From positions 1,312,001 to 1,376,000 of the forward strand of contig CM000151.3 in NCBI GenBank assembly GCA_000004695.1: a stretch of DNA of 64,000 bases. Direction: 5' to 3'. This stretch comes from Dictyostelium discoideum. Lineage: Eukaryota. Both the position numbers and the translations under genes were made by a program. The notes beneath the pieces are model-generated. The model was not told where the DNA came from. It was given only the letters and a program-made list of their open reading frames with translations, and made no database searches. Below are positions 1 through 49,679 of this stretch, piece after piece; positions within the stretch are counted from its first letter, which is position 1, and every line of letters starts with the position of its first letter.

Positions 1-449
1 CAATTCAACTCTCTATGATTTCTGCACAGGATATATTAAGTGTGATGAAGTTAATGGAAAAATAAAAGAGTTTGTATCATATTTTTTTATTTTTTTTTAT
101 ATTATTTTAACTAACTTTATTTAATTTATTTTCTAGTATATCTATAAAAAACATTATACCTAGTGGGTATAATAACCAATCAATATTACCAACAGACTTA
201 GCGTGTCTTCCTAATTTAAATAAACTGTATGTATAATTAAAATTAAAAAAAAATAAAAAAATAAAAAATTCTTATTAAACATTTTAAATATAATTTATAG
301 ATATCTCGAAAATCTAAATATATCAAAACAGCTTGTATTTTATCAATTCCCTCAAAAAATGGGTCAAGTAACATATAATTATGGAGACTATGAGTGTAGT
401 TCAATTGACCAAAAACTACCGGAAATTCCATTTTTGTAAGTTTGGCAAA

Positions 450-482
<33 letters not shown>

Positions 483-3400
483 CTTTTTTTCTTTTTTTGA
501 TATATATATATATATATTATTAAAATAAAAAAATAAAATAAAAGTATTCTAAAATAAAATTTTATTTTAAGTTATTTTTATTGTAAATTTATTTCTGGAA
601 CAACACTTAAAATGTCATACATATCGAAACAGACATTTTTTGAATTAGGAGATAGTTTTGTGCATTTTGAAAATGATGTTGTTGCGACTCATAATATCTC
701 AATGGTTTCATTTACAGCATATTCATTAAACTTTGCTGACTTTTCAAATTTTCAAGGTTTAGGATTTTTCAAAATGACTTTCAATCAAGATTTTATTATT
801 TCATCAATACAAAACTATTCAACCATTAAATCAAATTCCATACAAATAGAGCACAACATAGATATTCCCTATCCATTTTATATACCTATAAACAATTCCA
901 CTCAAAGATTATCAGTATATGCACGTTTTGAAAAACCAAGTTCAATGATAGATCTCTCAAGTTTAGTTTATTCAGATTTATCTCTTTCGGGAGTAGGAGA
1001 CAAGTTCAATTTAAATGGTGAGATTCCGATAATTCCACCGCCTGGTTGCAATTTTATAATAATGCATGGTAATTTTAATGTATTTCCAAATTTTACATAT
1101 TTTACAGGTGGCTTTACTTCTTTTCAGTCAAACTTTTCAATAGCTTTGCCATCCTATTCAGGTAAAAATACAATGTTTTCAATGATAAACAATAACTTGA
1201 TTGGAACAATTGATGAATCTTGGTGCAATGTCAATTTGATAATTTATAATAATAAATTAACAGGGCATGTTTAATTATAAATTAATTCATAATATAAAAA
1301 TAAACAAAATTAACTTTATCTAACTTTTAATTTTTTTTTTACAATAGAAAAATTCCTACATGTTTTACTTGTTATTTTTCAGATCCTGCAGTTTATACTT
1401 CTTTTTCTGGTAACCAATTTACCAACTACAACCAATCAATTGGGTGCCCTGAATTTGCACCAAGATTTGAATTGATGGACATTTCAACCAAAACTTTCCG
1501 TGTAACAGGTATTAATATAGGCTTTACTCCTATGAATTGGTTATTAAACTCAGTTTACTTTCCTTATAATTCCCAAGCTATCTCAACGGGATATGAATAT
1601 GTTGTATCGTACTTATTTTCAATTATTCCTAATCCAAAATACTTTGGTATATTATTTGTGTATCCAGCACCACCACAAACAATATACTTCCCTCTTGGTG
1701 ACCAATTCCCAAATCCAACCGGAATAAAAATAACATCAAATCAATTATTAATTACAGGTGAATTATTTTCAAGTTATATGGGTTACTCAAATCAATCAGT
1801 CCAATTTGAAGAAACATCTACTAATTGTACAATAAAAGATGGTAATTTCTTTAATATAACTTGTGAATTTGTACCATCATCTATTTCTACCTTAACATAC
1901 CCAACAATCATTAAAATTAAAAATGATAATTTAACAAGAAGAGTAATTGTCAATCCGTTAATCGGACAATTAAATCAAATTCCATGTCCTAATAGTTGCG
2001 ATGATATTAGTAATAGTATTTGTGATCTTAATCAAGGTATTTGTATCAGTTGTGTTGATGATTGTGGAATATTCGGTGAATGTAATTTTCAAACCAAAAC
2101 CTGTGATTGTGATTCAAATCATCAAGGTCCAAATTGTTCTATACCATTTATACAATGTCCAACAGGTTTAAATTCTTTAATTTGTAGTAGTGTAGATTAT
2201 AAAATGTGTAACAATCAAACTGGTGTTTGTACTTGCTCTCCAAATCAACAGGGTCAAGATTGCTCATTACCATTTAAACAATGTCCAGTTGGTTTGGATT
2301 CGTTAATATGTAGTGGAGGTAATAACAATTGTAATAATCAAACTGGCATTTGTTATTGTGATAGTAAATTTACAAATGATGATTGTTCAAAACCAAATCA
2401 ATATATATCATCTGTTTCACCATCAAACACAAATGGAGGTGAGGCATCATTTTTTGGTTGGTTTGGAGATATTCATTCAAATCCATCATTATTAATTGGA
2501 AATCAACAATGTCAACCAATTACATATAATTCTTCAATCGAAATTAGATGTATTGCACCACCAGGTAATGGAGTATATGATATTACTTTTAATCAAAATT
2601 ATATCATGTATCAATTAAGAAATGGTTACAGCTATCTTGAAATTTTTAGAAATTGTCCAAACAACTGTACAAATTCAAATCAAGGAAATTGTAATACTTC
2701 AAATGGAGAATGTAATTGTATAAACAATTATTACTCATTCGATTGTAGTTTAAAAAGAAATAATAATACAGGTGGTAACAATGGTGGTAATCCATCAATC
2801 GATCCATCAACAGGTGGGACTAATATTACTGATAATCAAGTAAATTTCCAAATTTATTTTATAAATTTATTTGAAATCGATTTCAACGGTAATATTGTAA
2901 ATCAATATTCATTACAAAGTAATTGGACTCTCAATAAGACTAAAGATTCACAAGAAAATAATATTTATAAATTAACACAAATCATTCAACAATCATGTGA
3001 AATTGTAACATTGATCGAAGAAATCTCAACATCTAAACAATATTCATTTGCAGGCTCAACATTCACATTAGATGCTGGTTCAATTAAATTAACAATTTCA
3101 ATATCAAATTATATTTATAAAAGCAGTTTAAATACATTACAACTTCAATTAATATCATCAGTAGATAACGAAAATGAAGAATCAGATTGTAATATTAAAC
3201 AAGTTTCTACAAATGAAACCAATACATCCTCATTTAAATATATTAAAATTTCAAAAGATAATAGAGTCCTTCAAGGTAGATTCATTAATCAAATACTATC
3301 AGATGGAAGACCAACATATTTGTCAACTGATATTAAAAGTGATGGTAATTCAGTAATTGCAACATTAAATCTACCACATTTTGTAAATCAATCAATTATC

Positions 3401-3601
3401 GATCCAGACTTTTCAGTTTTACTCGAAAATGATTTTAAATCAGAATGTGATACTAAAAACTCTCGTGAATGGTTAATACCAGTTGCTGTTGTAATTCCTG
3501 TTCTCAGTGTTTGTTTTATTGTAGTGATTATCTATATTATTTATAGGAAACAATTTATAGAGAAACCTCTAAAAATAAAATTAGCAGCTTTAGGAAATTA
3601 A
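1..3601 (+). CDS. LRR / EGF-like / IPT-like type I transmembrane protein, tandem paralogue A (exon 1 truncated by window start)
   Basis: Five-exon model, approx exons <1..69, 137..226, 301..435, 572..1264, 1348..3601; all intron phases are 2 and consistent. Exon 4 is ORF 612..1274 (plant-type LxxNxLxGxIP leucine-rich repeats, e.g. FNLNGEIPIIPP and NKLTG|KIP across the intron). Exon 5 is ORF 1472..3601 (Cys-rich EGF-like modules CDCDSNHQGPNC, IPT/TIG-like GWFGDIHSNPSLLIGNQQCQPI..IRCIAPPGNG, C-terminal TM WLIPVAVVIPVLSVCFIVVIIYIIY plus a short tail). About 90% nt identity to copies B and C, including introns. Intron 4 donor is GC (ACAGG|GCATGT) where B and C have GT. Confidence 0.7.
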
Positions 3602-3689
3602 AAATAAATAAATAAATAAATATTAATTGGTATATATATATATTTTGATCTATTCTTTTTTTATCTATAAATCTTTATTGTGATACAAA

Positions 3690-3960
3690 ATCCTTTACAG
3701 GAGGGTTGTTTCAATGATTGAATAAATGATAAATCAGCAACGATCAATATAATCGATTAAAAGAAATTGAGTATTATTTTGGAGTTATAATTAATTTGTA
3801 ATTAATTTTTCATTTATAACCATGAGAATTTCTTTTCACTTAATAAGTAATTGGTAAATAAAACAAGTAGTACCGAATAAACAAATTGAAGAGATTAAAT
3901 TATATTCATAAAATAATTTGATAATTGATTATTACCACTACTATTACAATTTGAAATTAC
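3690..3960 (-). pseudogene. Truncated, stop-containing duplicate of the C-terminal end of the 7TM giant gene (paralogous to 14640..14900)
   Basis: About 80% nt identity to 14640..14900, which on the minus strand encodes ...FQSIIFIVADSSFIQSLQQPSYKGF of the giant gene. Here the equivalent codons read F*SIILIVADLSFIQSLKQPSCKGF (CAA to TAA stop). Similarity ends near 3960-4020. It sits about 90 bp after the stop of copy A, as the intact gene sits 80 bp after copy C. Confidence 0.6.
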
Positions 3961-4473
3961 TAATTCTGAAATTCTATTTGGCTGTAATTGTAAATTTTGA
4001 ATCATTAATTATTATATTTGAATGATTTTTTGAAAGAATACACATAAAACTATAAATCCTCTTTATATATATATAAATAATAAACTTCTTTTATTCGTCT
4101 CTCTGTTGCTAAATCGTCTTCGTTTAAGAATAATTAACTAATATATAAACATGAATAATATTATAAACAGTGTACAACAATTCATTCTTTATTATTATAA
4201 TTAATCAACACAATATAAACCTCTTTAATGATTCCCAAAGACGTCACATTTTATTTTTTTTTTTTATTAAATCACTTAAAAAAAAAAAAAAAAAAAAAAG
4301 ATAACAGAGATGGTGTAATTTGGAAAAAAAAAAAAAAAAAATTGAAAAAAAAAAAAAATTAAAAAAAAAAAACAAATATGAATAAATTAAAAATGATTTG
4401 GATTTTATTTGTTAGCTCTCGTTGGATTAAAAATTGTCCAAATATTAAAAATAAAAATAATTATTCTAGAATG

Positions 4474-4849
4474 TTCATCTAATTCTGTATATTAAATACG
4501 TTGTATCTACAACTGAAAATATTTTAATACCATCAATAATTAATGGTATTTGAGATAACCTATCTTTACTATTTATTGGATTTAAATCATTTAAAATTAA
4601 AATGTTTTTTTTTACATTATTTAATTTTTTTAATATAGTTTTATGATATTTTACGATTTGATCAATTGTTGGATAACATTTTATAAAATGTAAATATAAT
4701 AATAAATCTTTTAAATTTAAATTTATATTATATCTCTTAACTTTGTTTGGAGATAAAAAAAACTATTTTTATCAATCCAAAATAAGATTTAAACAATCTT
4801 TCATTAGAAAAAAAAAAATTTCTACATTATATTCATTTAATAATGACAT
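4474..4849 (-). CDS. Candidate small gene: a stop-free 94-codon reading frame, possibly preceded by an ATG mini-exon
   Basis: Minus-strand frame with no stop from about 4756 to 4474 (..LSPNKVKRYNINLNLKDLLLYLHFIKCYPTIDQIVKYHKTILKKLNNVKKNILILNDLNPINSKDRLSQIPLIIDGIKIFSVVDTTYLIYRIR*), which is unlikely by chance in 80% AT DNA. A possible ATG exon (MSLLNEYN, 4849..4826) joins in frame through a weak, short GTAGAA..ATAG intron of about 63 nt. No canonical start inside the long frame, so it is absent from the ORF track. Confidence 0.25.
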
Positions 4850-5793
4850 TTTCGAAATATATGTAAAAAAAAAAAAGTTAGTGTAATTTTAAAAAAAGTT
4901 GGTGTAATTTAAATTTTTTTTTTTTATTTTTATTTTTTTTTTTTTTACTAAAATGCCCAAAGCATCCTCTTGGTAACCAGCCAAAGGATTCTTATTTAAA
5001 ATCAGATTTAATTAAAAATTTAAATTTAATTGCTGATGATATTATCACCAATTTAAATTTGAATTTTCAACAAAAAAGAACTAAAACAGCTATCAAAAAG
5101 AATTAAAAAAATTAATTCTGATCTTAAAAGCCATACAATATTTGGGATGTCAGATTTCAATTGAAAAATGTTTGAAGTTTTCAATTAACAATATCCTGAA
5201 AAAAAAAAAAGAAAATTGATTTAATAGGATGGGTTGAATCCAACTAAATGTTAAACATAAATAAATAAAAAAATAATCCAAAAATAAATTTTTTATTTTT
5301 CTCATTTTTTTTTTTTTTTTTTCAGATTACGCCATCTCTATTTGGTATTTTTTTTTTTTTTATTTTTTTTTTTTTTTTCAGATTACGCCATCTCTAATAT
5401 TATTTTTATTTTAACTGTGGAGGATATTTTTTTTTAATAAAAAAAAAACCTATAGTTGGTTTTCAATATAGTATGTTGTATAAAACTTTAGTATCATTTG
5501 TGTGCAAAAAACTGGTTCATAATTAAAACAATTTTCTAACACCTCAAATCTGATTTTTTTTTTTTATGATGCGCGTTGCCAAAAAAAAAAAAAAAAAAAA
5601 GATTCACAAGTCAGAAAATAATAAAAAAAAAAAGATATTTTTTCACAGTGGATATTTTTTTTTTTTGATATTTTTTCCTTATTTTTTTTTATTTTTTTTT
5701 TTTTTTCAAAAAAATATCTAATTAAACTGTGAATTGGTTTTATTGATTTTTTTTTTTTTATTTTTTTATTTATTTTGTTTTTTTAGATAATAA

Positions 5794-6213
5794 ATGGTTA
5801 ATTTTTTTATTTGTTTTTTGATGTGTTCAATGTTTTTTTGTTATATTAATTGCATTGAACCTCCAGTAGATGAATATAATTGTTTCTTTGATTTTATTAC
5901 AAAAATAAACCTTTTTTCATTCTATCCAAATACCAATGCTACTCACTATAATTTTTGCACAAATAATATTGTATGTGATGGAGTTACTGGAACAATAAAA
6001 GAGTATGTATTTTATTTTATTTTATTTTATTTTATTTTATTTTATTTTATTTTATTTTATTTTATTTTATTTTATTTTTTTTTTTTTTTTAACTAACTTT
6101 ATTAAATTTATTTTAGTATTACTATATTAAACACCTTAACTAGTGGATATAATAACCAATCAATATTACCAACAGACTTAGCGTGTCTTCCTAATTTTAA
6201 TAGAATGTAGGTA

Positions 6214-6262
<49 letters not shown>

Positions 6263-9200
6263 CCTAATAATTATACAGATATTTCCAAAATCTAGTTATA
6301 TCAAAAGAACTTGTATTTTATCAATTCCCACAAAAAATTAATGAAGTAACATATGATTATGGAGACTATCCTTGCAGTCCGATTGATCAAGAGCTACCTG
6401 GAACATTTGCCTTGTGAGTATTGAAATATTTTTTTTTTTTTGACTACTAAAATTATTTATTAAAAAAAAAAAAAAATAATATTCTAAAATAATATTTTAT
6501 TTTTAGTTATTTTTATTGTAAAACTATTTCGGGAACAACAATAAAAATATCACACATAATGAAACCTTCAATTTTTTATTTTAGAAATAGTTTTGTACAT
6601 TTCGAAAATGATGTTGTTGCAACTCATAATATCTCAACGATTTCATTTTCAGTGTTTTCATTAAGCTTTGCAGATTTTTCTAATTTTATAAGTTTGGGAA
6701 TTTTCCAAATAACTTTCAATCAAGATTTTGTTATTTCATCAATACAAAACTTTTCAACCATTAAATCAAATTCCATCTCAATAGATCACAACCAAAATAA
6801 TTTCTATCCATTTTATGTACCAATAAATAACTCCACTCAATCATTATCAATAGCGGCACTATTTGAAAAACCAAATTCAATGATAGATCTTTCAAGTTAT
6901 GGTTTTAAACATTTACTTTTATCGAAAGTTGGAGAAAAGTTTAATTTAAATGGTGAGATTCCGATAATTCCACCCACTAGTAGCAATTTTTTAATAAACT
7001 TAGGCAATTTTAATGTATTTCCAAACTTAACAAAATTTTCTGGGACTTTTAGTTCATCTGGGTCTAACTTTTCAATTGCTTTACCATCACATTCAGGTAA
7101 AAGTACAATGGTGTCTTTAGTAAATAATAACTTTTTTGGAACAATTGATGAATCTTGGTGCAATGCCAATTTGATAGTCACCGGTAATAAATTAACAGGG
7201 TATGTTTAAATTAATAAAAAAATAATCCATATAAATCTAAATATATCTAACTTTATAATTTTTTTTTTTTATTAATAGAAAAATACCTACATGTTTTACC
7301 TGTTATTTTTCAGATATCTCATTTTTTAATTATTTTTCTGGTAACCAATTTACAAACTACAACCAATCAATTGGGTGTTCTGAATTTGCACCAAGATTTG
7401 AATTGTTGGACATTTCAACCAATACTTTCCGTGTAACAGGTATTAATATAGGGTTTAACCCAAGATATTGGTTATTAAACTCAGTTGACTTTCTAAATAG
7501 TTACCAAGCTATCTCAACGGGATATGAATATGTTGTATCGTATATATTTGCAAGAATACCTAATCCAAAATACTTTAATGTTACATTTGTTCATCCAGCA
7601 CCATCACAAACAATATACTTCCCTCTTGGTGATCAATTACCAAATCCAACCGGTATTAAAATAACATCAAATCAATTAATAATTACAGGTGAATTATTTT
7701 CAAGTTATATGGGTTACTCAAATCAATCAGTCCAATTTGAAGAATCATCTACTAATTGTACAATAAAAGATGGTAATTTCTTTAATATAACTTGTGAATT
7801 TGTACCATCATCTATTTCTACCTTAACATACCCAACAATCATTAAAATTAAAAATGATAATTTAATAAGAAGAGTAATTGTCAATCCATTAATTGGACAA
7901 TTAAATCAAATTCCATGTCCCAATAATTGTGATGATCTTATTAATAAAATCTGTGATCTTTCTAAGGGTATCTGTGTCTGGAAAATTTGTAAAAATGATT
8001 GTGGAATTTTTGGCGAATGTAATGATCAAACTGGAGAGTGTGATTGTGATTCAAATCATCAAGGTCCAAACTGTTCTATACCATTTATACAATGCCCAAC
8101 AGGTTCAAATTCTTTAATTTGTAGTAGTGTAGATTATAATATGTGTAACAATCAAACTGGTATTTGTACTTGCTCAACAAATCAACAAGGTCAAAATTGT
8201 TCATTACCATTTAAACAATGTCCAGTTGGTTTGGATTCCTTAATATGCAGTGGAGGTAATAGCAATTGTAATAATCAAACAGGAGTTTGTTATTGTGATT
8301 CAAATCATCAAGGTTCAACTTGTTCAAAACCATTTAAACAATGTCCAACGGGTCTAAATTCTTTAATTTGTAGTAGTGTAGATAATAATATGTGTAATAA
8401 TCAAACTGGTGTTTGTACATGTTCTCCTAGTCAACAAGGTCAAGATTGCTCATTACCATTTAAGCAATGCCCAGTTGGTTTGGATTCCTTAATATGCAGT
8501 GGAGGTAATAACAATTGTAAAAATCAAACAGGTATTTGTTATTGTGATTCAAATCATCAAGACTCTGATTGCTCATTACCATTTAAACAATGTCCAGTTG
8601 GTTTGGATTCTTTAATTTGTAGTGGGGGTGATAACAACTGTAATAATCAAACTGGTGTTTGTACATGTTCTCCAAATCATCAAGACTCTGATTGCTCATT
8701 ACCATTTAAACAATGTCCAGTTGGTTTAGATTCTTTAATTTGTAGTGGGGGTAATAACAATTGTAATAATCAAACTGGAATTTGTTATTGTGATAGTAAA
8801 TTTACAAATGATAACTGCTCAAAACCAAATCAATATATATCATCTGTTTCACCATCGACCACAAATGGAGGTGAAGCATCATTTTTTGGTTGGTTTGGAG
8901 ATATTCATTCAAATCCATCATTATTAATTGGAGCTCAACAATGTCAACCAATTACATATAATTCTTCAATCGAAATTAGATGTATTGCACCACCAGGTAA
9001 TGGAGTATATGATATTACTTTTAATCAAAATGATATCATGTATCAATTAAGAAATGGTTACAGCTATCTTGAAATTTTTAGAAATTGCCCAAACAATTGT
9101 ACAAATTCAAATCAAGGAAATTGCAATACTTCAAATGGAGAATGTAATTGTATAAACAATTATTACTCATTCGATTGTAGTTTAAAAAGAAATAATAATA

Positions 9201-10042
9201 CAGGTGGTAACAATGGTGGTAATCCATCAATCGATCCATCAACAGGTGGAACTAATATTACTGATAATCAAGTAAATTTCCAAATTTATTTTAAAAATTT
9301 ATTTGAAATCGATTTCAACGGTAATATTGTAAATCAATATTCATTACAAAGTAATTGGACTCTCAATAAAACTAAAGATTCACAAGAAAATAATATTTAT
9401 AAATTGACTCAAATCATTCAACAATCATGTGAAATTGTAACATTGATCGAAGAAATCTCAACATATAAACAATATTCATTTGCAGGCTCAACATTCACAT
9501 TAGATGCTGGTTCAATTAAATTAACAATTTCAATATCAAATTATATTTATAAAAGCAGTTTAAATACATTACAACTTCAATTAATATCATCAGTAGATAA
9601 CGAAAATGAAGAATCAGATTGTAATATTAAACAAGTTTCAACAAATGAAACCAATACATCCTCATTTAAATATATTAAAATTTCAAAAGATAATAGAGTC
9701 CTTCAAGGTAGATTCATTAATCAAATACTATCAGATGGAAGACCAACATATTTGTCAACTGATATTAAAAGTGATGGTAATTCAGTAATTGCAACATTAA
9801 ATCTACCACATTTTGTAAATCAATCAATTATCGATCCAGACTTTTCAGTTTTACTCGAAACTGATTTTAAATCAGAATGTGACAATAAAAACTCTCGTAA
9901 ATGGTTAATACCAGTTGCTGTGACAGTCCCAATCGTTGGTCTTTGTTGTATTGGAGTGATTGTATATTTTTTATATAGAAAACATTTTATTGAGATACCT
10001 CTAAAAGTTAAATTAGAAAGTATTGGAAATAAAATAAAATAA
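5794..10042 (+). CDS. LRR / EGF-like / IPT-like type I transmembrane protein, tandem paralogue B (expanded EGF-module array, about 1296 aa)
   Basis: Exons approx 5794..6002, 6117..6206, 6279..6413, 6507..7199, 7279..10042. Donors GTATGT/GTAGGT/GTGAGT/GTATGT, acceptors after T-rich ..AG. Exon lengths 209/90/135/693 are identical to copy C. Exon 1 encodes a signal peptide (MVNFFICFLMCSMFFCYINC) plus a Cys-containing N-terminus. The last exon has six 41-aa C-x-C EGF-like modules versus two in A and C, then IPT-like, an extra EGF, a roughly 300-aa membrane-proximal domain and a TM (WLIPVAVTVPIVGLCCIGVIVYFLY). The ORF track called 7403 with a TTG start and the frame is open upstream of it, which supports splicing from exon 4. 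Confidence 0.75.
8060..8830 (+). repeat. Coding tandem array of about 123-bp (41-aa) EGF-like module units, six units in copy B
   Basis: Alternating units CSxPFxQCPTGxNSLICSSVDxNMCNNQTGxCTCSxxQQGQx and CSLPFKQCPVGLDSLICSGGxxNCxNQTGxCYCDSNHQxSx, each beginning CS[ILK]PF[IK]QCP, repeated head to tail. Copies A and C have one pair. Confidence 0.8.
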
Positions 10043-10779
10043 TATTAAATAAAATAAAAATAAATAAACAAATAAAATGATAAATTGTCACTATTATTTT
10101 ATTTTTTATATTATTTGTAAATATTATTTAAAAGATTAAGTTTTTATTTTTTTTATTTTTTTTTATTTTTTTTTTAGGTTTAAAAAATTAATTTTTTTTA
10201 TAATAATAATTTGGTCACTAAATGAAATTTCCAAACCTACCTGAAAAGAATATTCTAAACCAAAAAGAAAATTCTTATAATGTTAATCAAAACATTCAAA
10301 TCTGGCAAAAAAAAAAAAAAAAAAATGGAAAAAAAAATGAAAAAATAGCAAAGATTAAATTTTAATTTTTTTTTTTTAACAAAATTAATTATTAGACGTA
10401 AAGATGACGACTGAACATTTGATTTTTTTTTTAAAAAAGATCTTTGAGGCTACCCAAAAAAAAATGAAGAGGTAAAGTAGATATTAAAAAAAAAAAAATC
10501 CTAAAAAAAAAAAAATATCCAAAAATAAAATCAAAAATGTTTATTTCCCAATAAATATCTCAAATCATTTGTTCTTTTTTTTCAAAAATGAGATTACCAT
10601 ATCATTTCAAATAAAACCAATTTTATTATCAAAATAAATTATGGCAGTTATTAAAAAAATAAATGGATATGTTTTTTTACTTACCGAAGATTTTTTTTTA
10701 AATTGATAGTAAAAAAAAAAAAATCTTAATTTTTTTAACATTTTCCATTTTCCATTTTTTTTATAATAATTAGATTTTA

Positions 10780-13700
10780 ATGGGGAAATTTATTATTTGT
10801 TTTTTGTTGTGTTCAATGTTTTTTTGTTATGTTAATTGCATTGAACCTCCAATAGATGAATATAATTGTTTCCTAAATTTTATTACAAAAATAAACCTTT
10901 TTTCATTATTTCCAAAAACCAATGCCACTCACTATGATTTTTGCACAGGATATATAAAGTGTGATGGAGTTACTGGAACAATAAAAGAGTATGTATTTTA
11001 TTATTTTATTTTTTTTATATTATTTTAACTAACTTTATTAAATTTTTTATTAAAGTGTAACTATTTTAAACACTTTAAAAAGTGGATATAATAACCAATC
11101 GATTTTAGCAACAGACTTAGTGTGCCTTCCTAATTTAAATAGAATGTATGTGTATTTAAAACAATGAAATAAAATAAAATTGCTATTAAACATGTTTATT
11201 ATACTTTTATAGAAATCTCCAAAATCTAAATATATCTAAACAGCTTGTTTTTTATGAATTCCCACAAAAAATTGGTCAAGTAACATATAATTATGGAGAC
11301 TATGAGTGTAGTCCAATTGATCAAAAACTACCTGAAATTCCATCTTTGTAAGTTTGGCAAAATCCTTTTTTTTTCTTTTTTTTAAAAATTAAAATTATGG
11401 TATTCTAAAATAATATTTTATTTTTAGTTATTTTTATTGTAAATCCATTTCTGGAACAACATTTAAAATCTCATACATAACAAAACAGACAATCTTTTAT
11501 TTTGGAGATAGTTTTGTACATTTCGAAAATGATGTTCTTGAGACTCATAATATCTCAATGGTTTCATTTACAGCATATTCGTTAAACTTTGCTGACTTTT
11601 CAAATTTTAAAGGTTTGGGATTTTTCAAGATGACTTTCAATCAAGATTTTATTATTTCATCAATACAAAACTATTCAACCATTAAATCAAATTCCATACA
11701 AATTGAGCACGACACAGATTTTCCCTATCCATTTTATATACCAATAAATAATTTCACTCAAAGATTATCAGTATATGCACGTTTTGAAAAACCAAGTTCA
11801 ATGATAGATCTCTCAAGTTTAGTTTATTCGGATTTATCTCTTTCGGGAGTAGGCGACAAGTTTAATTTTAATGGTGAGATTCCGATAATTCCACCACCTG
11901 GTTGCAATTTTATAATAATGCATGGTAATTTTAATGTATTTCCAAATTTTACATATTTTACAGGTGGCTTTACTTCTTTTCAGTCAAACTTTTCAATATC
12001 CTTGCCATCCTATTCAGGTAAAAATACAATGTTTTCAATGATAAACAATAACTTGATTGGAACAATTGATGAATCTTGGTGCAATGTCAATTTGATAATT
12101 TATAATAATAAATTAACAGGGTATGTTTAATTAAAAATTAAAATAAAAATTAATTATATTAAAAAATAAATAAATATAAAAATAAACAAATTTAACTTTA
12201 TCTAACTTTTTTTTAATAATAGAAAAATACCTACATGTTTTACTTGTTATTTTTCGGATCCTGCGGTTTATACTTCTTTTTCTGGTAACCAATTTACAAA
12301 CTACAACCAATCAATTGGGTGTTCTGAATTTGCACCAAGATTTGAATTGATGGATTTTTCAACTAAAACTTTCCGTGTAACAGGTATTAATATAGGCTTT
12401 ACTCCTATGAATTGGTTATTAAACTCAGTTTACTTTCCTTATAGTTTCCAAGATATCTCAACGGGATATGAATATGTTGTGTCGTATTTATTTTCAATAA
12501 TACCTAATCCAAAATACTTTAATGTTACATTTGCTCATCCAGAACCATCACAAACAATATACTTCCCTCTTGGTGATCAATTACCAAATCCAACCGGTAT
12601 TAAAATAACATCAAATCAATTATTAATTACAGGTGAATTATTTTCAAGTTATATGGGTTACTCAAATCAATCAGTCCAATTTGAAGAATCATCTACTAAT
12701 TGTACAATAAAATATGGTAATTTCTTTAATATAACTTGTGAATTTGTACCATCATCTATTTCTACCTTAACATACCCAACAATCATTAAACTTAAAAATG
12801 ATAATTTAATAAGAAGAGTTATTGTCAATCCATTAATTGGACAACTAAATCAAATTCCATGTCCAAATAATTGCGATGATCTTAATAATAGTATTTGTGA
12901 TCTTAATCAAGGTATTTGTATCAGTTGTGTAGATGATTGTGGAATATTCGGTGAATGTAATTTTCGAACCAGAACCTGTGATTGTGATTCAAATCATCAA
13001 GGTCCAAATTGTTCTATACCATTTATACAATGTCCAACAGGTTTAAATTCTTTAATTTGTAGTAGTGTAGATTATAATATGTGTAACAATAAAACTGGTG
13101 TTTGTACTTGTTCTCCAAATCAACAAGGTCAAGATTGTTCATTACCATTTAAACAATGCCCAGTTGGTTTGTATTCGTTAATATGCAGTGGAGGTAATAA
13201 CAATTGTAACAATCAAACAGGTATTTGTTATTGTGATAGTAAATTTATAAATGATGATTGTTCAAAACCAAATCAATATATATCATCTGTTTCACCATCA
13301 ACCTCAAATGGAGGTGAAGCATCATTTTTTGGTTGGTTTGGAGATATTCATTCAAATCCATCATTATTAATTGGAAATCAACAATGTCAACCAATTACAT
13401 ATAATTCTTCAATCGAAATTAGATGTATTGCACCACCAGGTAATGGAGTATATGATATTACTTTTAATCAAAATGATATCATGTATCAATTAAGAAATGG
13501 TTACAGCTATCTTGAAATTTTTAAAAAATGTCCCAACAATTGTACAAATTCAAATCAAGGAAATTGTAATACTTCAAATGGAGAATGTAATTGTATAAAC
13601 AATTATTACTCATTCGATTGTAGTTTAAAAAGAAATAATAATACAGGTGGTAACAATGGTGGTAATCCATCAATCGATCCATCAACAGGTGGGACTAATA

Positions 13701-14485
13701 TTACTGATAATCAAGTAAATTTCCAAATTTATTTTAAAAATTTATTTGAAATCGATTTCAACGGTAATATTGTAAATCAATATTCATTACAAAGTAATTG
13801 GACTCTCAATAAGACTAAAGATTCACAAGAAAATAATATTTATAAATTAACACAAATCATTGAAATATCATGTGAAATTGTAACATTGATCGAAGAAATC
13901 TCAACATCTAAACAATATTCATTTGCAGGCTCAACATTCACATTAGATGCTGGTTCAATTAAATTAACAATTTCAATATCAAATTATATTTATAAAAGCA
14001 GTTTAAATACATTACAACTTCAATTAATATCATCAGTAGATAACGAAAATGAAGAATCAGATTGTAATATTAAACAAGTTTCAACAAATGAAACCAATAC
14101 ATCCTCATTTAAATATATTAAAATTTCAAAAGATAATAGAGTCCTTCAAGGTAGATTCATTAATCAAATACTATCAGATGGAAGACCAACATATTTGTCA
14201 ACTGATATTAAAAGTGATGGTAATTCAGTAATTGCAACATTAAATCTACCACATTTTGTAAATCAATCAATTATCGATCCAGACTTTTCAGTTTTACTTG
14301 AAAATGATTTTAAATCTGAGTGTGATACTTACAACTCTCGTAAATGGTTAATACCAGTTGCTGTGGCAGTTCCAATCTTTGGTGTTTGTTGTATTGGAGT
14401 GATTATATATTATTTTTATAGAAAACATTTTATTGAAATACCACTAAAAATAAAATTAGGAATTATTGGGAATAAAATAAAATAA
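10780..14485 (+). CDS. LRR / EGF-like / IPT-like type I transmembrane protein, tandem paralogue C (about 1129 aa)
   Basis: Exons approx 10780..10988, 11056..11145, 11213..11347, 11428..12120, 12223..14485. Same architecture and phases as copy B. Signal peptide MGKFIICFLLCSMFFCYVNC. TM WLIPVAVAVPIFGVCCIGVIIYYFY. Stop at 14483..14485. Confidence 0.75.
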
Positions 14486-14565: not shown

Positions 14566-19617
<5,052 letters not shown>

Positions 19618-19956: not shown

Positions 19957-21399
19957 TCAAGATGTAAAAGCTTCTTTTTCTTCAGGTAAAATTTCAATAT
20001 TAATATTTAAAGTGACACTATTTTGAATTACAAAACCAGTTTGTGTAGTTACTAAAGAATTATTTATAAATGATCTCCAACCCCATTTATTTTCGGTATG
20101 GAATATATTTGTTGATGCTAATTTTCTATTTCTTGTGAAATCTTTATTTAATAATTCAAATGAAAATTGAACTTTTGATGGTGTTTGATCATCAAATTTA
20201 TATAAATAAATTGATAAGAAATCTTTTGATTCATCACTTAGGCCGCCATTGGGATAGAATTGAATTTTAAATTTTAAATTTCCAACCATAAATTCGGGAG
20301 ATTCGATTGACTTTGGTTTTGGATAATCTTGTAATTTTTGTGACCAATTTGTGATAACCCATTTATTTTGATAATTAAATTTCAATTCTCTAATTACTTT
20401 TAATTCAGATTGCAATATTTTAAAATCATCTTTAAGTCGGTTATATTCCAATTCTAATTTCTTATATTCCTTTTCAGATTTTTCAAATTTACATATATGT
20501 TGGTCGATTGTTGCTTCCATGTATTTACTATGGTCGATTAATTTCATGTGTTCGGACAACTCGGATCTTGGAAATTCTAGCATACATCCTGCTTCTCTAT
20601 ATTTACATTGTATCACTGTGAATGGACATTCATTCTCTATATGGTATTTTATTCTACCTCTTTCGATTGTGCAATTGAATGTGGGCGAATTACAATTTTG
20701 TGGACATTTAATTGGAAACTTTTCACATTCGGAATAGTGTACTTTACTATCATCAATCACCAACCCTTTCTCACCACAAAACTCACATTCTGATTTCAAC
20801 TTTTTACATTTCTCTGCATGGTCTTTTAATTGATTCTTTCTTAATCTTGTTTTACATTCCTTATCATTTGGACATTCAATAAATTGAAATTGACATTCCT
20901 TTATATGACCTTCTAACTCATCAACTTTTAAAATCTCTTTACAACCAAATTTTTCATCAATTTCAATTTTACCAGAATTTAAAATTCTAAATAAATTTGG
21001 ACAAAATATTTTTTTATTTCTAAATTCCTATTTGTGTATCAAAAAAAAAAATATATTTTTAAAATTATTAATAAAAAAAAAAAAAAATTGAAAAAAAAAA
21101 AAATTATTATTTTTACAAACCTTTTGTAAATAAATATTTTTTGATAATGAATCTACGGAATTCACTCTTGTTCTACATGTCATACATTCTTTTTTTGATT
21201 CCAAAGATTTCATCCAACATAATCTACAATGAACATGTCCTTCTTTACATTGTAAAGCTTCACATTTATTTACATCCATTATACATTCTTCACAAATTGG
21301 ACAATTAAAATTTTCTGATAAAGAAACTGGATCAACAATTAAATCATTTATTGTAAATTTTATTGGTGTAATATTTAATTGTGAAATTGTTGTTGTCAT
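19957..21399 (-). CDS. TRAF-like protein 1 (RING finger, TRAF-type zinc fingers, coiled coil, MATH domain), about 449 aa
   Basis: Exon 1 21121..21399 (C3HC4 RING: CPICEECIMDVNKCEALQCKEGHVHCRLCW..CMTCR). Phase-0 donor CAAAAG|GTTTGT. A 93-bp intron 21028..21120. Exon 2 19957..21027 (acceptor CAAATAG|). Cys/His TRAF zinc fingers (CPNDKECKTRLRKNQLKDHAEKCKKLKSECEFCGEKG...), coiled coil (LELEYNRLKDDFKILQSELK) and MATH-like C-terminus (YQNKWVITNWSQK...FKIQFYPNG). Confidence 0.75.
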
Positions 21400-28571: not shown

Positions 28572-31500
28572 TTATTTTGTTGTTGTAGTTGTTGTAGTTG
28601 TAGTTGTAGTTGTAGTTGATTGAAATGGTTTAGTTTTTTTTAAATTATCTTGAGAATTAAAATCAATTTTTCTTTTAATTTGGAGTGGTGGTTTGTTAAT
28701 AGTTGGTTTTTGTTGTTGTGATTGTTGATTTGAAACTGTTTGCAATTGTTCTAATTTTGAAGGTGATGAAGATGAAATTATATTAATTTTACTATTACTA
28801 ACTTCTTCTAATGGTTTCTTAATAGGTAAATTATGATTAACAGTACTGTTAATACTATTTAATTTTGATTCCAAAGTTCTAATCTTTTTCTCATCGATTT
28901 TATTCTTTTTAATTAATTGTTCATAATTTTCAAAAAGTGTTGTTAATTCATCGTCTTTATCCAAGAGAGATTGTTGAAGTTGTTTGATTATTAGATCTTT
29001 TGAGTCATCTTGTTGAACATTATTGATTTGTTCCAATTGAATAGTTGAGATTTTCTCTTGTAATTGTTGGTTTTCATTGGTTGAATTTTCGAGTTTTTGT
29101 TGTAATTGATCGGATTGTTTTTGGAGATCATTTGATTTCTCAATGGATTCATTGTATTGTTGTTGTTTTTCATCAAATTTAGATTTCAATTGATGAATGG
29201 ATTCGATAGATAATTGTTTTTCATCTTGTAATTTTTGAATCTCCAAAGTGTTTATATTGAATTGTTGTTGTAAATGATTGACTTGTTGTTGTAATGTTGA
29301 AATTTTTTCAATGGATTCTTGATTTTGTAATTGTTGTTCCTCCAAATTTGATTTTAATTGTAAATTTGAATCGGATTGTGATTGTTTATCATCTTGTAAT
29401 TTTTGAATCACCAATATATTTAAATCAAATTCTTGTTTTAATTTATTTAATTCTTGTTTTGATTGTGAAAGTTTTTCAAGTGATTCATCGTATTGTTGTT
29501 GTTTTTCATCAAATTTAGATTTCAATTGATGAGTTGATTGAATTGAAGATTGTTTTTCATCTTGATGTTGTTGTTGAATTAATTCTCTTTCTTTTAAATA
29601 ATTTTCAGTTTGTTGAGAATGTAAATGTTCAAGTTGGGAAATTGATTGTTCCAATTGTTTAATTACCAAAGTATCTTTATCATTCTCTTTTCTCAAATGA
29701 GTATTTGATTCCTTTTCAAATTTAATTTCTTGTTCCAATTGATCCAATTTACATTGTAAGTTAGAGTTTTCATTAGTTTTTTCTTGTAAATTTTGAGTTA
29801 CTTCTTTAAATTCTTGAATCATTTCATCGAGTTTCGATTTAATATCATCAGATTTTGATTGATTTTCAAATGAATTTTGTTTTTCAAGTTCAACATTTTC
29901 CTTTAATTGAGTGATCATATCATTTTGAAGTTTATTTCTTTCCAATTCATTGGATAAATCCAAGAGTAATTGTTGATTCTTTGATTTTAACTCTGTTACA
30001 TGGTTTGATAATTGATCGATTGAACTATCAGAATTCTTTTTATTTGAATTAAATAATTGAATATCTTGTTTTAATGTTGAGATTTCATCTTGTTTTTCAA
30101 AGAGTTGTTGTTTTAATCTATCAAATTCCAATTGTAATTGATTCTTTTCATCTATTAATTCTTGATAATTTGATTGAGAATCATTGATTTCCATTTGATA
30201 ATCATTGATTTTCTTATTTAATTCCAATAAGGTTGAATTCAATGTAGAGACACCATCTTGTTTATCAGAGAGTACCTGTTTCAATTGATCTAATTCCAAT
30301 TGTAATTGATTCTTTTCATTTTGAATCACTTTAATATTGTTATCATATTCTTTAATATCTGATTGATAATTGGATATTTTTCTATTCAATTCAAATTCAA
30401 TTGAATTTAATAAAGTGATATCATCATGTTGTTCAGAGATTCTTTGTTTCAATTGATCCAATTCCAATTGTAATTGATTCTTTTCATTTTGTAAACTTTG
30501 AACATTTTCATTTGATTCAGTGATTTGTGATTGATAATCAGTGATGGTTGAATTCAATTGTAAGAGGTTATCATTCAATTTAGAGGTTTCATCTTGAAGA
30601 TCATTACACTTGACTAATGATTCTTTTATTGATTGATTACGTTGTGAAATTGTTTCTTCAAGTTTAATAATTTCATCTTTATCAATTTGTAAATCAATTT
30701 GTAATTGTTGTATCTTATAATCACTAGTTGAAAGATCCTGTTGTAATTGTTGAATTTTATGATTGTTTTTATCGATTTCCATCTCTTGTAATTGGATACA
30801 AGATTGTTTTTCATCTATCAACATTTTAGATTGTTCAATTTGTTCTTGTAAATCTTGATTATATTGTGAGCTTAATGATTGAATTTTCAATTCAAACTCT
30901 GTTAATTGATTTTGATTTTCTTCAATTTTTAATTCAAGTTTTGAAATGATTTCATTGGATTCATTTAGTTGACATTGTAATTGTGATTTCAAATCAGAGG
31001 TTTCATTTAGGGAATCTTGTAAGAGTGAAATTTGATTTTGAGAATTTTGAAGATCCAATGAATTTGAGGATTGTAATTGTTGAATTTGTTCCAATTGATC
31101 ATTGGATTGATCATTCAATTTGGATAATTTTAAAGAGAGAGATTGGCAAGTCTCTTGATATTGTTGTTTTTCATTTGATAATTCCTTGATTTCCAATTGT
31201 AATTCAATTACAGTCTTTTCAAATTGTGAAATTGAAAGTTTACATTCTTGAACCAATTCTTTACTTTCAGATAATTGTTGTTTCAATTGTTCTATTTGAT
31301 TATTGTAAAAGTTTAAATCATCAGATTGATTTTGATTGATTTGTTTGGAATTTTCTAAATCCATTTTCAAAGTTTGACATTTATATCTCTCTTCATCCAA
31401 TAGAATTGTGAGTTCACCTTGATGATTGGATTGTTCCTCATTGACTCGTTTAACTTGTTCGATTGATTTCTCTAATTGAGTTGTATATAGTTTTGATTCA

Positions 31501-34005
31501 TTAAATAAATTTATGGATTGTTGTAAATCTTGTTTCAAATTAAAGAGTTGATTTTGTTCAACTTGATAACGTTGATTTAATTCATCGAAATTTGATTTAC
31601 CAAGATTAATCTTGTCAAACAGTTGATCAATATCAATTGAATTTTTTTGTAATTGTTCTTGTTGTCTATTGAGATCATCTTGTTTCAATTGTAATTCACT
31701 AGTTAGTTGATCAATTGATTCCAGGGATTGATTATATTGGTCATCCTTTTCTGAAAGTTTTTTATTTAATTCAATCACTTGTAATGATAAAGAATGAATA
31801 GATTGTTGTTTTTTAATCGATTCATCATTTAATTGAACAAGTTTTTCATTTAATGAATTAATATCAACTGATTGATTATCTATTGTAGTTAAATGTTGAT
31901 TAATTGTTAATTGATTTTGTTGAATGGTTTGTTTCAATTGTTGAGTTTTTACTTGAAATTCTTGAATTGTTCTCTCTTTATTTGATAGTTCTTGGTCTTT
32001 TTCAGGTATAGTAATAGTTGATAATTGATTTAATTGTAATTTTATTGCTTCAATCTCTGTTGAGAGAGAATTACTTTCATCTTGTAATGATTTAATAGTT
32101 GATTTTAATTGATTAATAGTTTGACAATCCTCTCTAATTGAAGATAATAATTGTTGATTCTCTTGATTCTTTTGATTATTTATTTTATTTAACTCATTAA
32201 TTTGTTCAGAATAATCATTTATTAAACAATTTAGTGAATCCTTTTCAGAGTTTATATTTACAATTGTATGATTTAAAGTTGTAATCTTTTCTTGAAATTT
32301 ATTTAAACTTTCAGATTGATCTAATTTCATTTGTTCAATTTGATTCTCTTTCTCTTTTAGTTGATCTTGATGAGTTGAATTTAAATTCTCAATTATTGAA
32401 TATAATGATTCAAGTTCTTTTTTATTAGTTGTTAATTTATCTTGATGATTTGAGATTAAAAGTATTGAGTTTTCAAGTTTAATCTTTAAATCATTGTTTT
32501 CATTAGTGATTGTATTGATTTGGTCATTGGAATCCGATTGTTTATCATTTAATGATTGTAAATCTGAATTTAAATTATCAATTTCCTTTTGTTTATCAAT
32601 GATTTCATTGATTCTTTGAGTTAATAATGATTGTTGATTTGAATTTCTTTCAATTTGATCATCTAATTTCTTTTTTAATTCATTAAAATCAAAAGAGAGT
32701 TGTTGTTTTTCAATTTGATATTCATTTGAAATATTATTAAATTCTAAATTCAATTTATTATAATTTAATTTTGAAAGTGATAAATCATCTAATAACTTTG
32801 AATAATTATTTGATTTAGTGTCAAGTTGTGATTTTAAATCTTTTAGATCTTTATCTTGTTCAGTGATTAAAATTTGATAATCATTATTCTCCTTTGAGAT
32901 TTTATCAATCAATGATTTCGATTCGGTTCTTTCATTCTTTAATTTTTCATTTATTTCTTTATTCAATTGAGACACTGATTTCAGATTCTCTTGATATTCA
33001 GAGATTAACGATTGGTAACGTTCATTATCATCATCAGAGGTTGATTGTAAATCCGATACTTGGATTTGTAAATCCATAATTAAAATTTCAGATTCTTTAA
33101 GTTTCTCTTGCTCACTCTTTAGTTTATCACTTACAAATTCAAGTTTCTCCTCCAACTCTGTCATTATCAAAGTGGATGTTGATATCTCCTCGCTTTGGAT
33201 ATCAATGATTTGCTGATTCTTTTCATTATCTGCATTGAATTGATGTTGTAATTCTCTCAACTCTTTTTCATATTGCTGTTGTTTATCTCGTAATTGTTGT
33301 ATCATGATATCCTTATTTTCAATCTTACTCCTTTGATTGGACTCTTGCTCTTTGCTATCAGTTAATTGTTCTTGTAATTGTTGGATTTCAATCTCCATTT
33401 TCCCCATCTCCTTATTAGATTGCAATAAATATGATTTATTCTCTTTATTGGAATTCTCTAAATGCACTATCCTAACTTCTAAATTTGATTTATCACACCT
33501 TAATTTATCAGTTTCATTTATAAGTTTCTCTAATTTCTCTGTTTGTATTTCAATTTGTTTATTTGTTTTATCTTCAAATTCTCTCATCTCTTTTTGATGT
33601 TGTTTCTCCAAATTCCCTTTTTCAACTTTTAATTGATCAATTAATTCACAAACTTTTTGATGATTCGTTTTAGTTTGTTTTAATATTTCTTGTAATTTTT
33701 TAATTTCAATTTGACCATTATTAAATTTTTCTTCAACTAATTTTAACTAATAATAATAATAAAAAAAAATTAATAATTTTATTATTATATTATTATTATT
33801 ATTATTTTTTAAATATATATATATATATACATACTTCAGATAAAATTTTATTTTTTTCATTCTTTAATTCTGTTGCTGTTTTTTGAGTAACTTTTAAAAC
33901 ATCAGCTTGATTATCAAATTGTTGAGCTTTTTGTTTTATTCGTTTCTTTAAATCTTCATTTTCATCTTCAAGATGTTTTATCTTTTCATGTTGGTCTTTA
34001 TTCAT
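28572..34005 (-). CDS. Large coiled-coil protein (about 1780 aa), two exons
   Basis: Exon 1 33835..34005 (MNKDQHEKIKHLEDENEDLKKRIKQ...KILSE; donor GAA|GTATGT). Exon 2 28572..33746 (acceptor ATTATTAG|TTAAAATTAGTT; LKLVEEKFNNGQIEIKKLQ...). Heptad-rich Q/E/K/L sequence throughout with internal repeats (NEKNQLQLELDQLKQ three times). C-terminus ends in polyT ([15 protein letters not shown]). No motor or actin-binding domain recognised. Confidence 0.7.
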
Positions 34006-34646: not shown

Positions 34647-34648
<2 letters not shown>

Positions 34649-39149: not shown

Positions 39150-39181
<32 letters not shown>

Positions 39182-39692
39182 ACGATGATGATGATGGTGA
39201 GGTTGCAGTTGATGATGACGATGACGATGATGATGTTGATTTATTTACAAATTGTGGTGAAACTGATAATAAAGCATCAGCCCATCTTGCAGCAGATAAA
39301 GATGAACTATGAAGTTTATCAATTAAAACATATAATCTTTCAACCTCTTCAATTGAATTAATAATGAAAAATGGTGAATCACCAAGTGATAAATTTGTAA
39401 ATAATTGATGAGAAATTTGTTGAGAGAATTTTTGATGTAATGTACTATTTGGTTGAACGATTGTAACAATTAAAATTAAAATATCAATTGTTTGAGAATA
39501 TTGTAAATTTGATAATAAAAAACTTAAAAATCGTTCTCTAAAATCTGTATCTGGATATTTATCATTTGGATCATATAAATATCTAACAAAAGAATGACAA
39601 TTTTCAATAATAGTTGGTATTGTATAACTATATGGGTGTGAACTATTATTACCAATTACTGTACTATTATTTAATGACTGACTAGAATTTGA

Positions 39693-39761
<69 letters not shown>

Positions 39762-46011: not shown

Positions 46012-46601
46012 TTAACTTTGCAAAGGTAAAATTTCTTCAGTTGCAAATATTTCAATTTCAATAGTTATTGAATCATTTATCAAAAATCCATTTGCATCAT
46101 TTAAAAGGTCAGCTCTTTTAATGAATTGAGAGGAACCATAACCAGCTGAACCATTTTCAGAATCATATTTTTGACAACCTCTCTTTTCATAAACTTCATC
46201 AGAAATTTGATTATTTACTAAATGAATATAATAATTTACAATGATAGATTTATCATCTTGAGTTTTGTATAAAAAGATTGAACAATAATTTAACTTCTTT
46301 TTACCAAAAGGGAACCATTTTAAAAAGAATGTTGAATTACCAATCTTAAATAATGGTGATTTGATATAATCCTTTGATATACCCTGTTGTTCTTGTTCAG
46401 AGTAATTTGAAATTACCCATTTATTTTTATAAACTGCTTGTGGTAATGATCCACCATTTGGACTATCACTCATTTGAACATTATTAATATTATTATTATT
46501 ATTATTAATAAAATGACTATTACTATTATTATTTTGTTGAGATTGTTGGGATTGTTGTTGTTGTTGAGATTGTTGTTGTTGTTGAGATTGTTGTTGTTGA
46601 G

Positions 46602-46668
<67 letters not shown>

Positions 46669-49016: not shown

Positions 49017-49033
49017 ATGACAATTTCTTTGAA

Positions 49034-49098
<65 letters not shown>

Positions 49099-49610: not shown

Positions 49611-49679
<69 letters not shown>

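Follow-up and report, generated by a model that had tools for sequence, protein, structure and literature searches.

Among the described systems that resemble the genes treated here, a tandem array occupying positions 1–14485 of a 64,000-nucleotide (nt) stretch of Dictyostelium discoideum AX4 chromosome 2 (hereafter, the window), the closest is ComC, whose gene is developmentally essential, encodes a protein with epidermal-growth-factor (EGF) domains, a signal peptide, and a transmembrane (TM) segment, and is conserved only in group 4 (PMC4931340). The comC mutant aggregates aberrantly (PMC2873529), and the gene has been cited as important in intercellular communication (PMC8865844). ComC shares with the array proteins the signal peptide and TM segment along with an ordered set of domains: a ComC-type leucine-rich-repeat (LRR) region, two beta-sandwiches, EGF modules, and a supersandwich. 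The developmentally essential comC, however, is a single gene whose mutant has an aggregation phenotype, whereas the array consists of four tandem paralogues, of which three (copies A, B, and C) lie in the window; and copy B, unlike comC, was selected as a gene induced in dedifferentiation and not in development.

Reportedly, Kibler et al. in 2003 placed comC upstream of lagC/lagD, which genes are tgrC1/tgrB1. The TgrB1 and TgrC1 proteins are, like the array proteins, type-I dictyostelid surface glycoproteins with IPT/TIG domains and short tails, encoded in dynamic, expanding clusters; but the Tgr ectodomain is built of repeated TIG domains, whereas each array protein has one TIG along with the LRR, sandwiches, EGF modules, and supersandwich. 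Moreover, the TgrB1 and TgrC1 genes form a divergent pair sharing a promoter, whereas the array copies are all on the + strand, head to tail. A preliminary description of this DNA, made from the letters alone, was thus correct in keeping the array apart from the tgr genes.

Two further systems offer partial parallels. GLMP (PDB 6nyq, 8r8q), a type-I lysosomal protein with a short tail, is the accessory subunit of the multi-pass MFSD1 dipeptide transporter and resembles the array proteins in its supersandwich ectodomain, single TM segment, and short tail; but GLMP has no LRR, EGF, or TIG head, and no sequence similarity to the array proteins is detectable. The plant LRR receptor-like proteins (for example TMM/ERL1, PDB 5xkj) are likewise single-pass proteins with an LRR solenoid outside the cell and a very short tail, signal through a co-receptor, and are likewise encoded in tandem arrays with variable heads. 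We treat this second likeness as an analogy only, the fold match of the plant ectodomain to an array protein being weak (Foldseek E ~1e-3) and the stalk of the array proteins (beta-sandwiches, EGF, TIG, and supersandwich) being without a plant counterpart.

When the translated copies were scanned against Pfam, all four of the ComC-specific domains matched strongly and in order; the array genes are therefore, as judged from their sequences, members of the existing dictyostelid ComC family and not of a new one. The LRR_ComC model (PF24141) aligned to copy C over its positions 1–288 of 288 with 309.8 bits against a cut-off of 27, exon 4 by itself yielding 237–249 bits across copies A, B, and C. 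In the expected order after the LRR, all three copies matched Beta-sand_ComC_1st (PF24142; 40.9–44.5 bits) and all three matched Beta-sand_ComC_2nd (PF24143; 77.9–82.8 bits), the cut-off being 27 for each. Matches to EGF_2 (26–55 bits; cut-off 22.1) were sited between the sandwiches and the supersandwich, which membrane-adjacent domain in turn matched ComC_SSD (PF22933) with 244.8–247 bits against a cut-off of 24 over model positions 2–222 of 222, the regions of copies A and B being near-identical to that of copy C. Copy A gave matches to LRR_ComC, the two beta-sandwiches, EGF_2, and ComC_SSD. The single IPT/TIG domain scored 24.8 bits against the Pfam threshold of 20.9 and was detectable only with an isolated segment of 88 amino acids (aa) scanned; the generic LRR_1 model gave no match (8.2 bits). 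The hydropathy profile of copy C contained an N-terminal segment (residues 4–22), one TM segment (1086–1104), and nothing else, the call of a signal coming from hydropathy alone; the same protein carries 27 N-glycosylation sequons and 52 cysteines, and the LRR solenoid of the array proteins is Cys-capped. Pfam and hydropathy therefore agree with the order of LRR, EGF, IPT/TIG, single TM, and short tail that had been proposed, the IPT/TIG lying above threshold on the isolated segment. The tail of 18 aa mentioned in that proposal is found in copy A, whereas copies B and C have 21 aa. The suggestion of a distinct new family, in contrast, has to be abandoned in view of the four ComC-derived Pfam families and of the prior annotation of the genes in AX4, where all four are entered only as hypothetical or EGF-like domain-containing proteins.

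How the array relates to the wider family was estimated from an exhaustive HMMER search which, counted in representative clusters, returned 560 at E<1e-3, a number that fell to 154 at E<1e-30. Among the best 150 clusters the supersandwich was present in 147 and the TIG in 124, while the ComC-type LRR head occurred in only 26; with the base so widely shared and the head confined to few clusters, the conserved unit of the wider family is the TIG–EGF–supersandwich–TM base, and the LRR head defines a subfamily. The ten named long representatives are all dictyostelid, and their names are without exception 'hypothetical' or 'EGF-like'. A second ComC-family locus, of the DDB_G0279859 type and about 30% identical (L008, 5343–14200), is likewise a tandem pair, and tandem duplication may be common in the family.

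The gene structures are as regular as the domains. The window is AT-rich, with a G+C of 15–31% in 2-kb steps, and its first 14.5 kb contain direct-repeat families in three copies, spaced 5931–5937 and 4921–4944 nt from start to start, with ungapped identities of 84–95%. We built exon models from the stop-free stretches and the surrounding DNA, and these keep the reading frame across all three copies; repeat spacing and models together bear out the three head-to-tail, five-exon genes first proposed, which fill the interval on the + strand. Exons 1–4 measure 209, 90, 135, and 693 nt in every copy, so that only the last exon differs, and the introns are short and AT-rich. Copy A is cut at its 5' end by the window edge, its start lying 140 nt outside, while its C-terminus reads ...KIKLAALGN. 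A fourth paralogue, DDB_G0272334 (~80% identical), does exist outside the window on the upstream side; but the opening of the window inside copy A, from which a further copy had been deduced, does not imply it, since that is only a cut at the edge. In the AX2-type locus L005, presumably from AX2-214, whose identity to the window amounts to 99.885% across 20 kb, the 3' end of DDB_G0272334 is found ~2.4 kb upstream of the copy A start codon (~2.5 kb before window position 1), and a gene for an RNase T2 lies between the two on the opposite strand.

Beneath this regularity, the two halves of the genes have had different histories. Exon 4 is 95.2% identical between A and C, and only 83.0% and 83.4% for A–B and B–C, respectively, whereas exon 5 is 94.3–95.8% identical in all pairs over the aligned columns; the introns are 66–97% identical over aligned positions, with numerous length differences. 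The figure of about 90% identity, introns included, that had been given for the array is thus a fair average that masks a strong difference between 5' and 3' (exon 4, 83–95%; exon 5, ~95%). In neighbour-joining trees with bootstrap, the B-type LRR exons form one clade across strains (100%), while those of A and C cluster by lineage; the B-type LRR lineage is older than the split between strains. In the tree of the TIG-to-supersandwich region, the AX4 copies A, B, and C cluster with one another (100%), as do the tropical copies (97%), so that the grouping does not follow positional orthology; and the synonymous divergence (dS) of the supersandwich is 0.03–0.06 between AX4 paralogues versus 0.13–0.17 between positional orthologues. 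Because the AX4 paralogues cluster together and their dS is below that of orthologues, the ~95% identity of the 3' halves stems from concerted evolution by gene conversion and not from recent duplication. The TM segment and tail, for their part, group by copy type (100%).

The stalk varies in yet another manner. Copy B is set apart by its divergent B-type LRR head and by four extra EGF modules, and is 167 aa longer than copy C because its EGF array runs to 6.3 units as against 1.9 (Table 1). Module number differs also among copy B alleles, exon 5 encoding 920 aa in AX4_B, 842 in FIR_B, and 932 in FIW_B; EGF modules are gained and lost via slippage.

For the comparison between strains and species we relied on the assemblies of Holland et al., which include AX2-214, two tropical D. 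discoideum isolates, two possible cryptic sister species, D. citrinum, and others (bioRxiv 10.1101/2025.08.01.668227), and compared eight loci (AX2-type, tropical isolates, ACTFIY, D. citrinum, D. firmibasis, and L008). In both ACTFIR and ACTFIW, which are tropical D. discoideum, A, B, and C have clear positional orthologues, beyond which the multi-pass, TRAF, and kinase genes follow as in AX4; copy C and its ACTFIR orthologue are 89.6% identical. Upstream of the array, ACTFIR has a 400-aa fragment (ACTFIR_012384), while ACTFIW has at least three further copies and, within the array, an inserted RNase T2 gene together with an unrelated giant gene. D. citrinum has at least four copies in a 24-kb locus; D. 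firmibasis has at least two plus a 335-aa fragment, also in a 24-kb locus, and a further paralogue (RB653_010123) outside that locus. Copy number thus ranges from about 3 to 6 or more between strains, in agreement with the variation across isolates that had been anticipated, and strains differ by the gain, loss, or breakage of whole copies. As to age, D. discoideum, D. citrinum, and D. firmibasis all carry the array together with its right-hand multi-pass boundary, so that the array goes back at least to their common ancestor; the duplication was not recent, and the contrary view in the preliminary description had been suggested by a 3' identity that is owed to conversion.

These strain differences raise the question of whether the copies are redundant products of birth and death, having little function individually and drifting toward pseudogenes. 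Split copies occur in ACTFIY, which also has a DDE transposase gene at the locus, and split pairs measure 209+887 aa in L003 and 133+1134 aa in L005; such split, truncated, or fused copies, the insertion of a transposase and of unrelated genes into the array of some strains, the non-canonical GC donor of one copy A intron, and the wild-type outcome of a copy B knockout in the assay used (PMC7190356) would all be expected of decaying paralogues. Nevertheless, the open reading frames (ORFs) and splice sites of A, B, and C are intact in three lineages that stand at a dS of ~0.1–0.2 from one another, the GC donor of copy A is shared by its orthologues in L001 and L004, the ratio of nonsynonymous to synonymous divergence (dN/dS) is 0.1–0.6 across the well-sampled domains, and the supersandwich is 83–89% identical as far as D. 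firmibasis and D. citrinum, for which reasons we hold a fate of mere decay to be quite improbable.

With respect to the inserted genes, the giant gene in the ACTFIW array (L002, 14382–20674, - strand) contains about 23 cbEGF repeats plus TIG. This 1889-aa minus-strand gene was considered as a second copy of the multi-pass gene, which candidate was rejected in that tblastn gave no similarity and Pfam identified it as cbEGF/TIG. The RNase T2 gene within the same array is at 8583–9529 of L002 (- strand), an RNase T2 also being located upstream of copy A in L005; the DDE_1 transposase gene within an array is at 20121–21976 of L003 (- strand).

Constraint is distributed unevenly along the proteins. 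Measured against copy C, the supersandwich retains 85–89% identity in D. citrinum and 83% in those D. firmibasis copies that are full-length, while the LRR exon has fallen to ~31–63% and 37–46%, respectively; the LRR head diverges fast between paralogues and species while the base stays conserved. By the method of Nei and Gojobori, the dN/dS was 0.12–0.60 for the LRR, 0.23–0.62 for the beta-sandwiches, and 0.11–0.39 for the supersandwich, with values for the head of up to 0.45–0.53 between copy B orthologues. No well-sampled domain reached 1, 'infinite' ratios being restricted to segments of 48–72 codons without any synonymous change between the two tropical isolates. All the domains are therefore under purifying selection, which is weakest in the head, and the fast protein change comes from lack of constraint or from patchy adaptation. 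Among the flanking genes, the dN/dS was 0.01–0.02 for the TRAF gene, 0.04–0.05 for the kinase, and 0.30–0.32 for the multi-pass gene.

These values bear on a further explanation, namely that the array might be a tgr-like, polymorphic locus for kin or allorecognition, whose variable heads separate self from non-self at aggregation. Such a role would accord with the variation in copy number and EGF-module number among isolates, with the faster evolution of the LRR head relative to the rest, and with the participation of the prototype comC in intercellular communication; nor does the lack of a dN/dS above 1 exclude that role, for in the same genomes the tgrB1 orthologues are 80–90% identical and those of tgrC1 65–70%, with a dN/dS below 1 (bioRxiv 10.1101/2025.08.01.668227). 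The polymorphism above background that characterizes the tgr genes was, however, not what we observed: in a comparison covering three lineages only and not a within-population sample, the larger domains have a dS between AX4 and the tropical isolates of ~0.10–0.24, a range overlapping the 0.07–0.16 of the neighboring TRAF, kinase, and multi-pass genes, so that neutral diversity shows no excess such as long-lived balanced alleles would be expected to leave. Furthermore, positional orthologues are recognizable across strains, the genes run head to tail instead of forming a divergent ligand–receptor pair, and each protein has one TIG domain only. Finally, the timing of copy B is the wrong one, Nichols et al. 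having picked that gene in a screen for strong induction early in dedifferentiation with minimal developmental expression (PMC7190356), which finding argues against a part for copy B in developmental self-recognition. Kin recognition at aggregation is consequently quite unlikely, and nothing here shows such an action of the array genes; neither the signature of a polymorphic recognition receptor nor the developmental kin recognition that had been read into the locus withstood the comparison.

The reading that we favor, and consider probable on the whole, is that the array encodes surface binding receptors of the ComC family, with a head specific to each copy and a homogenized base, acting when cells return to feeding. 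The identity of the array and its evolutionary dynamics are practically certain; the functional part is tentative and, in our estimation, falls somewhat short of an even chance. Under that reading, the array proteins would reside at the cell surface as binding receptors, the LRR head being the putative ligand-binding part with its own specificity in each paralogue, the EGF/TIG stalk setting the reach from the membrane, and the supersandwich–TM–tail base anchoring the protein. With a tail too short to signal alone, that base would probably couple to another membrane component. Copy B is transcribed, as follows from the report of Nichols et al., and its induction in disaggregated cells returned to food would suit a function in the switch back to feeding, for example in adhering to or recognizing particles, bacteria, or the substratum, better than one in developmental self-recognition.

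Several considerations weigh against this interpretation. Of the four array genes, copy B alone is named in the searchable literature, the identifiers DDB_G0272334, DDB_G0272336, and DDB_G0272366 having no mention there. The sole knockout, that of copy B, behaved like the wild type in the one marker scored, the induction of PCNA during dedifferentiation, and the statement on expression is limited to copy B and derives from one paper's selection criteria (PMC7190356). Family membership is founded on Pfam models named after ComC. Moreover, the variable positions of the LRR were not significantly enriched in predicted beta-strands (55/93 vs. 66/138, p=0.11, from the secondary-structure string only), and a ligand-driven variation of the head is thus not demonstrated.

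Should the heads indeed carry distinct specificities, the locus would represent a compact LRR-receptor array outside plants and animals, in which gene conversion maintains a common base while the tips and the stalk length diversify, and would provide a handle on the large and almost unstudied ComC/supersandwich family of the social amoebae. That the genes are annotated and the family curated was already known; new, at the descriptive level, are the mosaic of conversion and divergence, the allelic variation in EGF modules, the differences in copy number between strains, three probable annotation errors, and the GLMP-like fold of the base. In practice, the locus drops off the list of candidate new families, and the GLMP-like base furnishes a testable idea of how ComC-type proteins with short tails might be coupled to the cell.

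That last idea arises from structural modeling. A full-length AlphaFold2 (AF2) model was made for P0002, a protein of another isolate that is 90% identical to copy C and its orthologue by position; the predicted local distance difference test (pLDDT) of the model was ~90 in the LRR and sandwiches, 70–85 in the TIG and supersandwich, and low in the EGF stalk; compared with the PDB by Foldseek, this model matched GLMP, IPT segments of plexin, plant LRR ectodomains, and the supersandwiches of carbohydrate enzymes. When the supersandwich–TM–tail portion of copy C was modeled separately (pLDDT 73), it adopted a galactose-mutarotase-like supersandwich fold whose best Foldseek match was GLMP (6nyq_C; E=1.8e-6, TM-score 0.50). 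By sequence, a search with the alignment-A3 profile against all PDB sequences found no GLMP, even at E<=10; the likeness of the base to GLMP is to be taken as an analogy and not as membership.

In the case of GLMP the partner is a multi-pass protein, and the array adjoins a gene encoding one. The product of the convergent gene that follows copy C (Table 1) has a signal-like N-terminus and ~1330 aa of Asn-rich ectodomain that include two poly-Asn tracts, while seven strong hydrophobic segments (possibly eight) lie in its last 350 residues; neither the whole protein nor two pieces of it gave any Pfam match at E values up to 10. The array is bounded on the right by this same gene in D. discoideum, D. 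citrinum, and D. firmibasis alike, a conserved arrangement, and the TM region of the encoded protein is 71–79% identical in the latter two species. Directly downstream of copy A, moreover, is a remnant of the 3' end of the same gene, which among the loci compared occurs in the AX4/AX2 lineage only and was not detected in the tropical isolates, and which shows that one A/C duplication or conversion tract crossed the stop codon and the spacer into the convergent neighbor. One might consequently envisage an obligate two-gene module, in which the supersandwich–TM–tail would dock on the multi-pass protein as GLMP does on MFSD1, with the LRR proteins serving as interchangeable ligand-binding subunits. 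The persistence of the convergent neighbor in three species, the multi-pass piece carried along by the copy A tract, and the short but conserved tail would be in keeping with such a module; adjacency within conserved synteny, however, is weak evidence, the base has no sequence-level relation to GLMP, and the DDB_G0279859-type tandem pair of the ComC family lacks a neighbor of this kind, so that we regard an obligate module as unlikely. The giant 7TM neighbor put forward earlier as a partner is thus convergent, with seven or possibly eight hydrophobic segments, as stated, while the partnership itself comes down to conserved adjacency and an analogy of folds, by which the multi-pass gene is a weakly supported candidate.

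A still bolder combination, very unlikely in our judgment, would make of the array and its multi-pass neighbor one recognition machine, in which interchangeable LRR-headed subunits, each specific for a ligand of its own, dock via the GLMP-like base. If this were true, a modest set of subunit combinations would let the amoeba sense bacteria, particles, or other cells on its return to feeding, with gene conversion holding the docking base constant as the heads diverge.

Table 1. Positions of the array genes, of their EGF-module arrays, of the multi-pass gene and its remnant (window coordinates), and of the domains of copy C (protein residues).
Feature	Position	Strand	Description
Copy A, DDB_G0272336 (XP_645151, P0034)	2–3601	+	Exons 2–69 (partial exon 1), 137–226, 301–435, 572–1264, 1348–3601
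Copy B, DDB_G0272364 (XP_645152, P0001)	5794–10042	+	1296 aa; exons 5794–6002, 6117–6206, 6279–6413, 6507–7199, 7279–10042
Copy C, DDB_G0272366 (XP_645153, P0030)	10780–14485	+	1129 aa; exons 10780–10988, 11056–11145, 11213–11347, 11428–12120, 12223–14485
EGF-module array, copy A	2115–2353	+	1.9 units of 123 nt; Tandem Repeats Finder
EGF-module array, copy B	8018–8794	+	6.3 units of 123 nt (41 aa), two-module superperiod of 249 nt; Tandem Repeats Finder
EGF-module array, copy C	12990–13228	+	1.9 units of 123 nt; Tandem Repeats Finder
Multi-pass gene, convergent	14566–19617	-	1683-aa ORF
Remnant of multi-pass 3' end	3667–3918	-	84 codons, 76% aa identity to residues 1577–1660; tblastn, blastn, repeat family D10
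Signal-like segment, copy C	Residues 1–20		Hydropathy
LRR_ComC, copy C	Residues 90–374		Pfam
Beta-sandwich 1, copy C	Residues 409–489		Pfam
Beta-sandwich 2, copy C	Residues 497–585		Pfam
EGF modules, copy C	Residues ~590–722		
TIG, copy C	Residues ~729–797		
EGF after TIG, copy C	Residues ~815–850		
Supersandwich, copy C	Residues 856–1067 (window 13661–14296)	+	Pfam ComC_SSD
TM segment, copy C	Residues 1084–1108		Hydropathy
Tail, copy C	Residues 1109–1129		

Three of the AX4 gene models carry errors that are probable and correctable. Searched against proteins, the copies find their best matches in D. discoideum. In pairwise alignment, our copy A equals XP_645151 save for differences in the gene model, our copy B equals XP_645152 over residues 1–1270, the annotated C-terminus alone differing, and our copy C equals XP_645153 save 13 residues spliced out in the annotation. 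The introns of the three copies are all GT–AG except intron 4 of copy A (1265–1347), which is GC–AG, with the donor GCATGT in place of the GTATGT of copies B and C; the GC donor is kept in the A orthologues of loci L001 and L004. The annotation of XP_645151 bypasses that intron and so loses 11 residues (VNLIIYNNKLT) conserved in all the other copies. Within exon 4, the AX4 models of copies A and C excise 39 nt (GT...AG, at 1069–1107 and 11925–11963), by which excision GNFNVFPNFTYFT is lost; this annotated intron is probably spurious, because the equivalent in copy B begins with GGC and cannot be spliced, and because the 13 residues are conserved in all the orthologues. At the 3' end of copy B (~9990–10042), the annotated C-terminus of DDB_G0272364 leaves an uninterrupted frame over the last ~25 residues; since that frame encodes YRKHFIEIPLKVKLESIGNKIK, the same as the orthologue tails, the annotated end is probably wrong. 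Intron 1 of copy B, for its part, measures 114 nt versus 67 nt in A and C on account of a (TATTT)16 microsatellite at 6008–6088.

Some minor observations concern the multi-pass gene and the remainder of the window. Seven of the nine substitutions between the window and L005 are crowded into a 260-nt stretch of the low-complexity part of the multi-pass gene (16391–16648), all being G/C in the window and T/A in L005, which cluster could reflect either an error in the reference or assembly or a local cluster of mutations. A long ORF without a Pfam match at 28572–33611 (- strand; 1679 aa) proved unrelated to the multi-pass gene, no match being found by tblastn, and another such ORF is located at 49017–52559 (+ strand; 1180 aa). 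Two genes of the TRAF-type zinc finger/MATH kind lie at 19957–21399 and 46012–47241, both on the - strand, the first being extremely conserved between isolates, unlike its neighbors. Finally, a huntingtin homologue with N- and C-terminal HEAT regions, in agreement with AX4 chromosome 2 as the origin of the window, occupies 34647–43471 (- strand).

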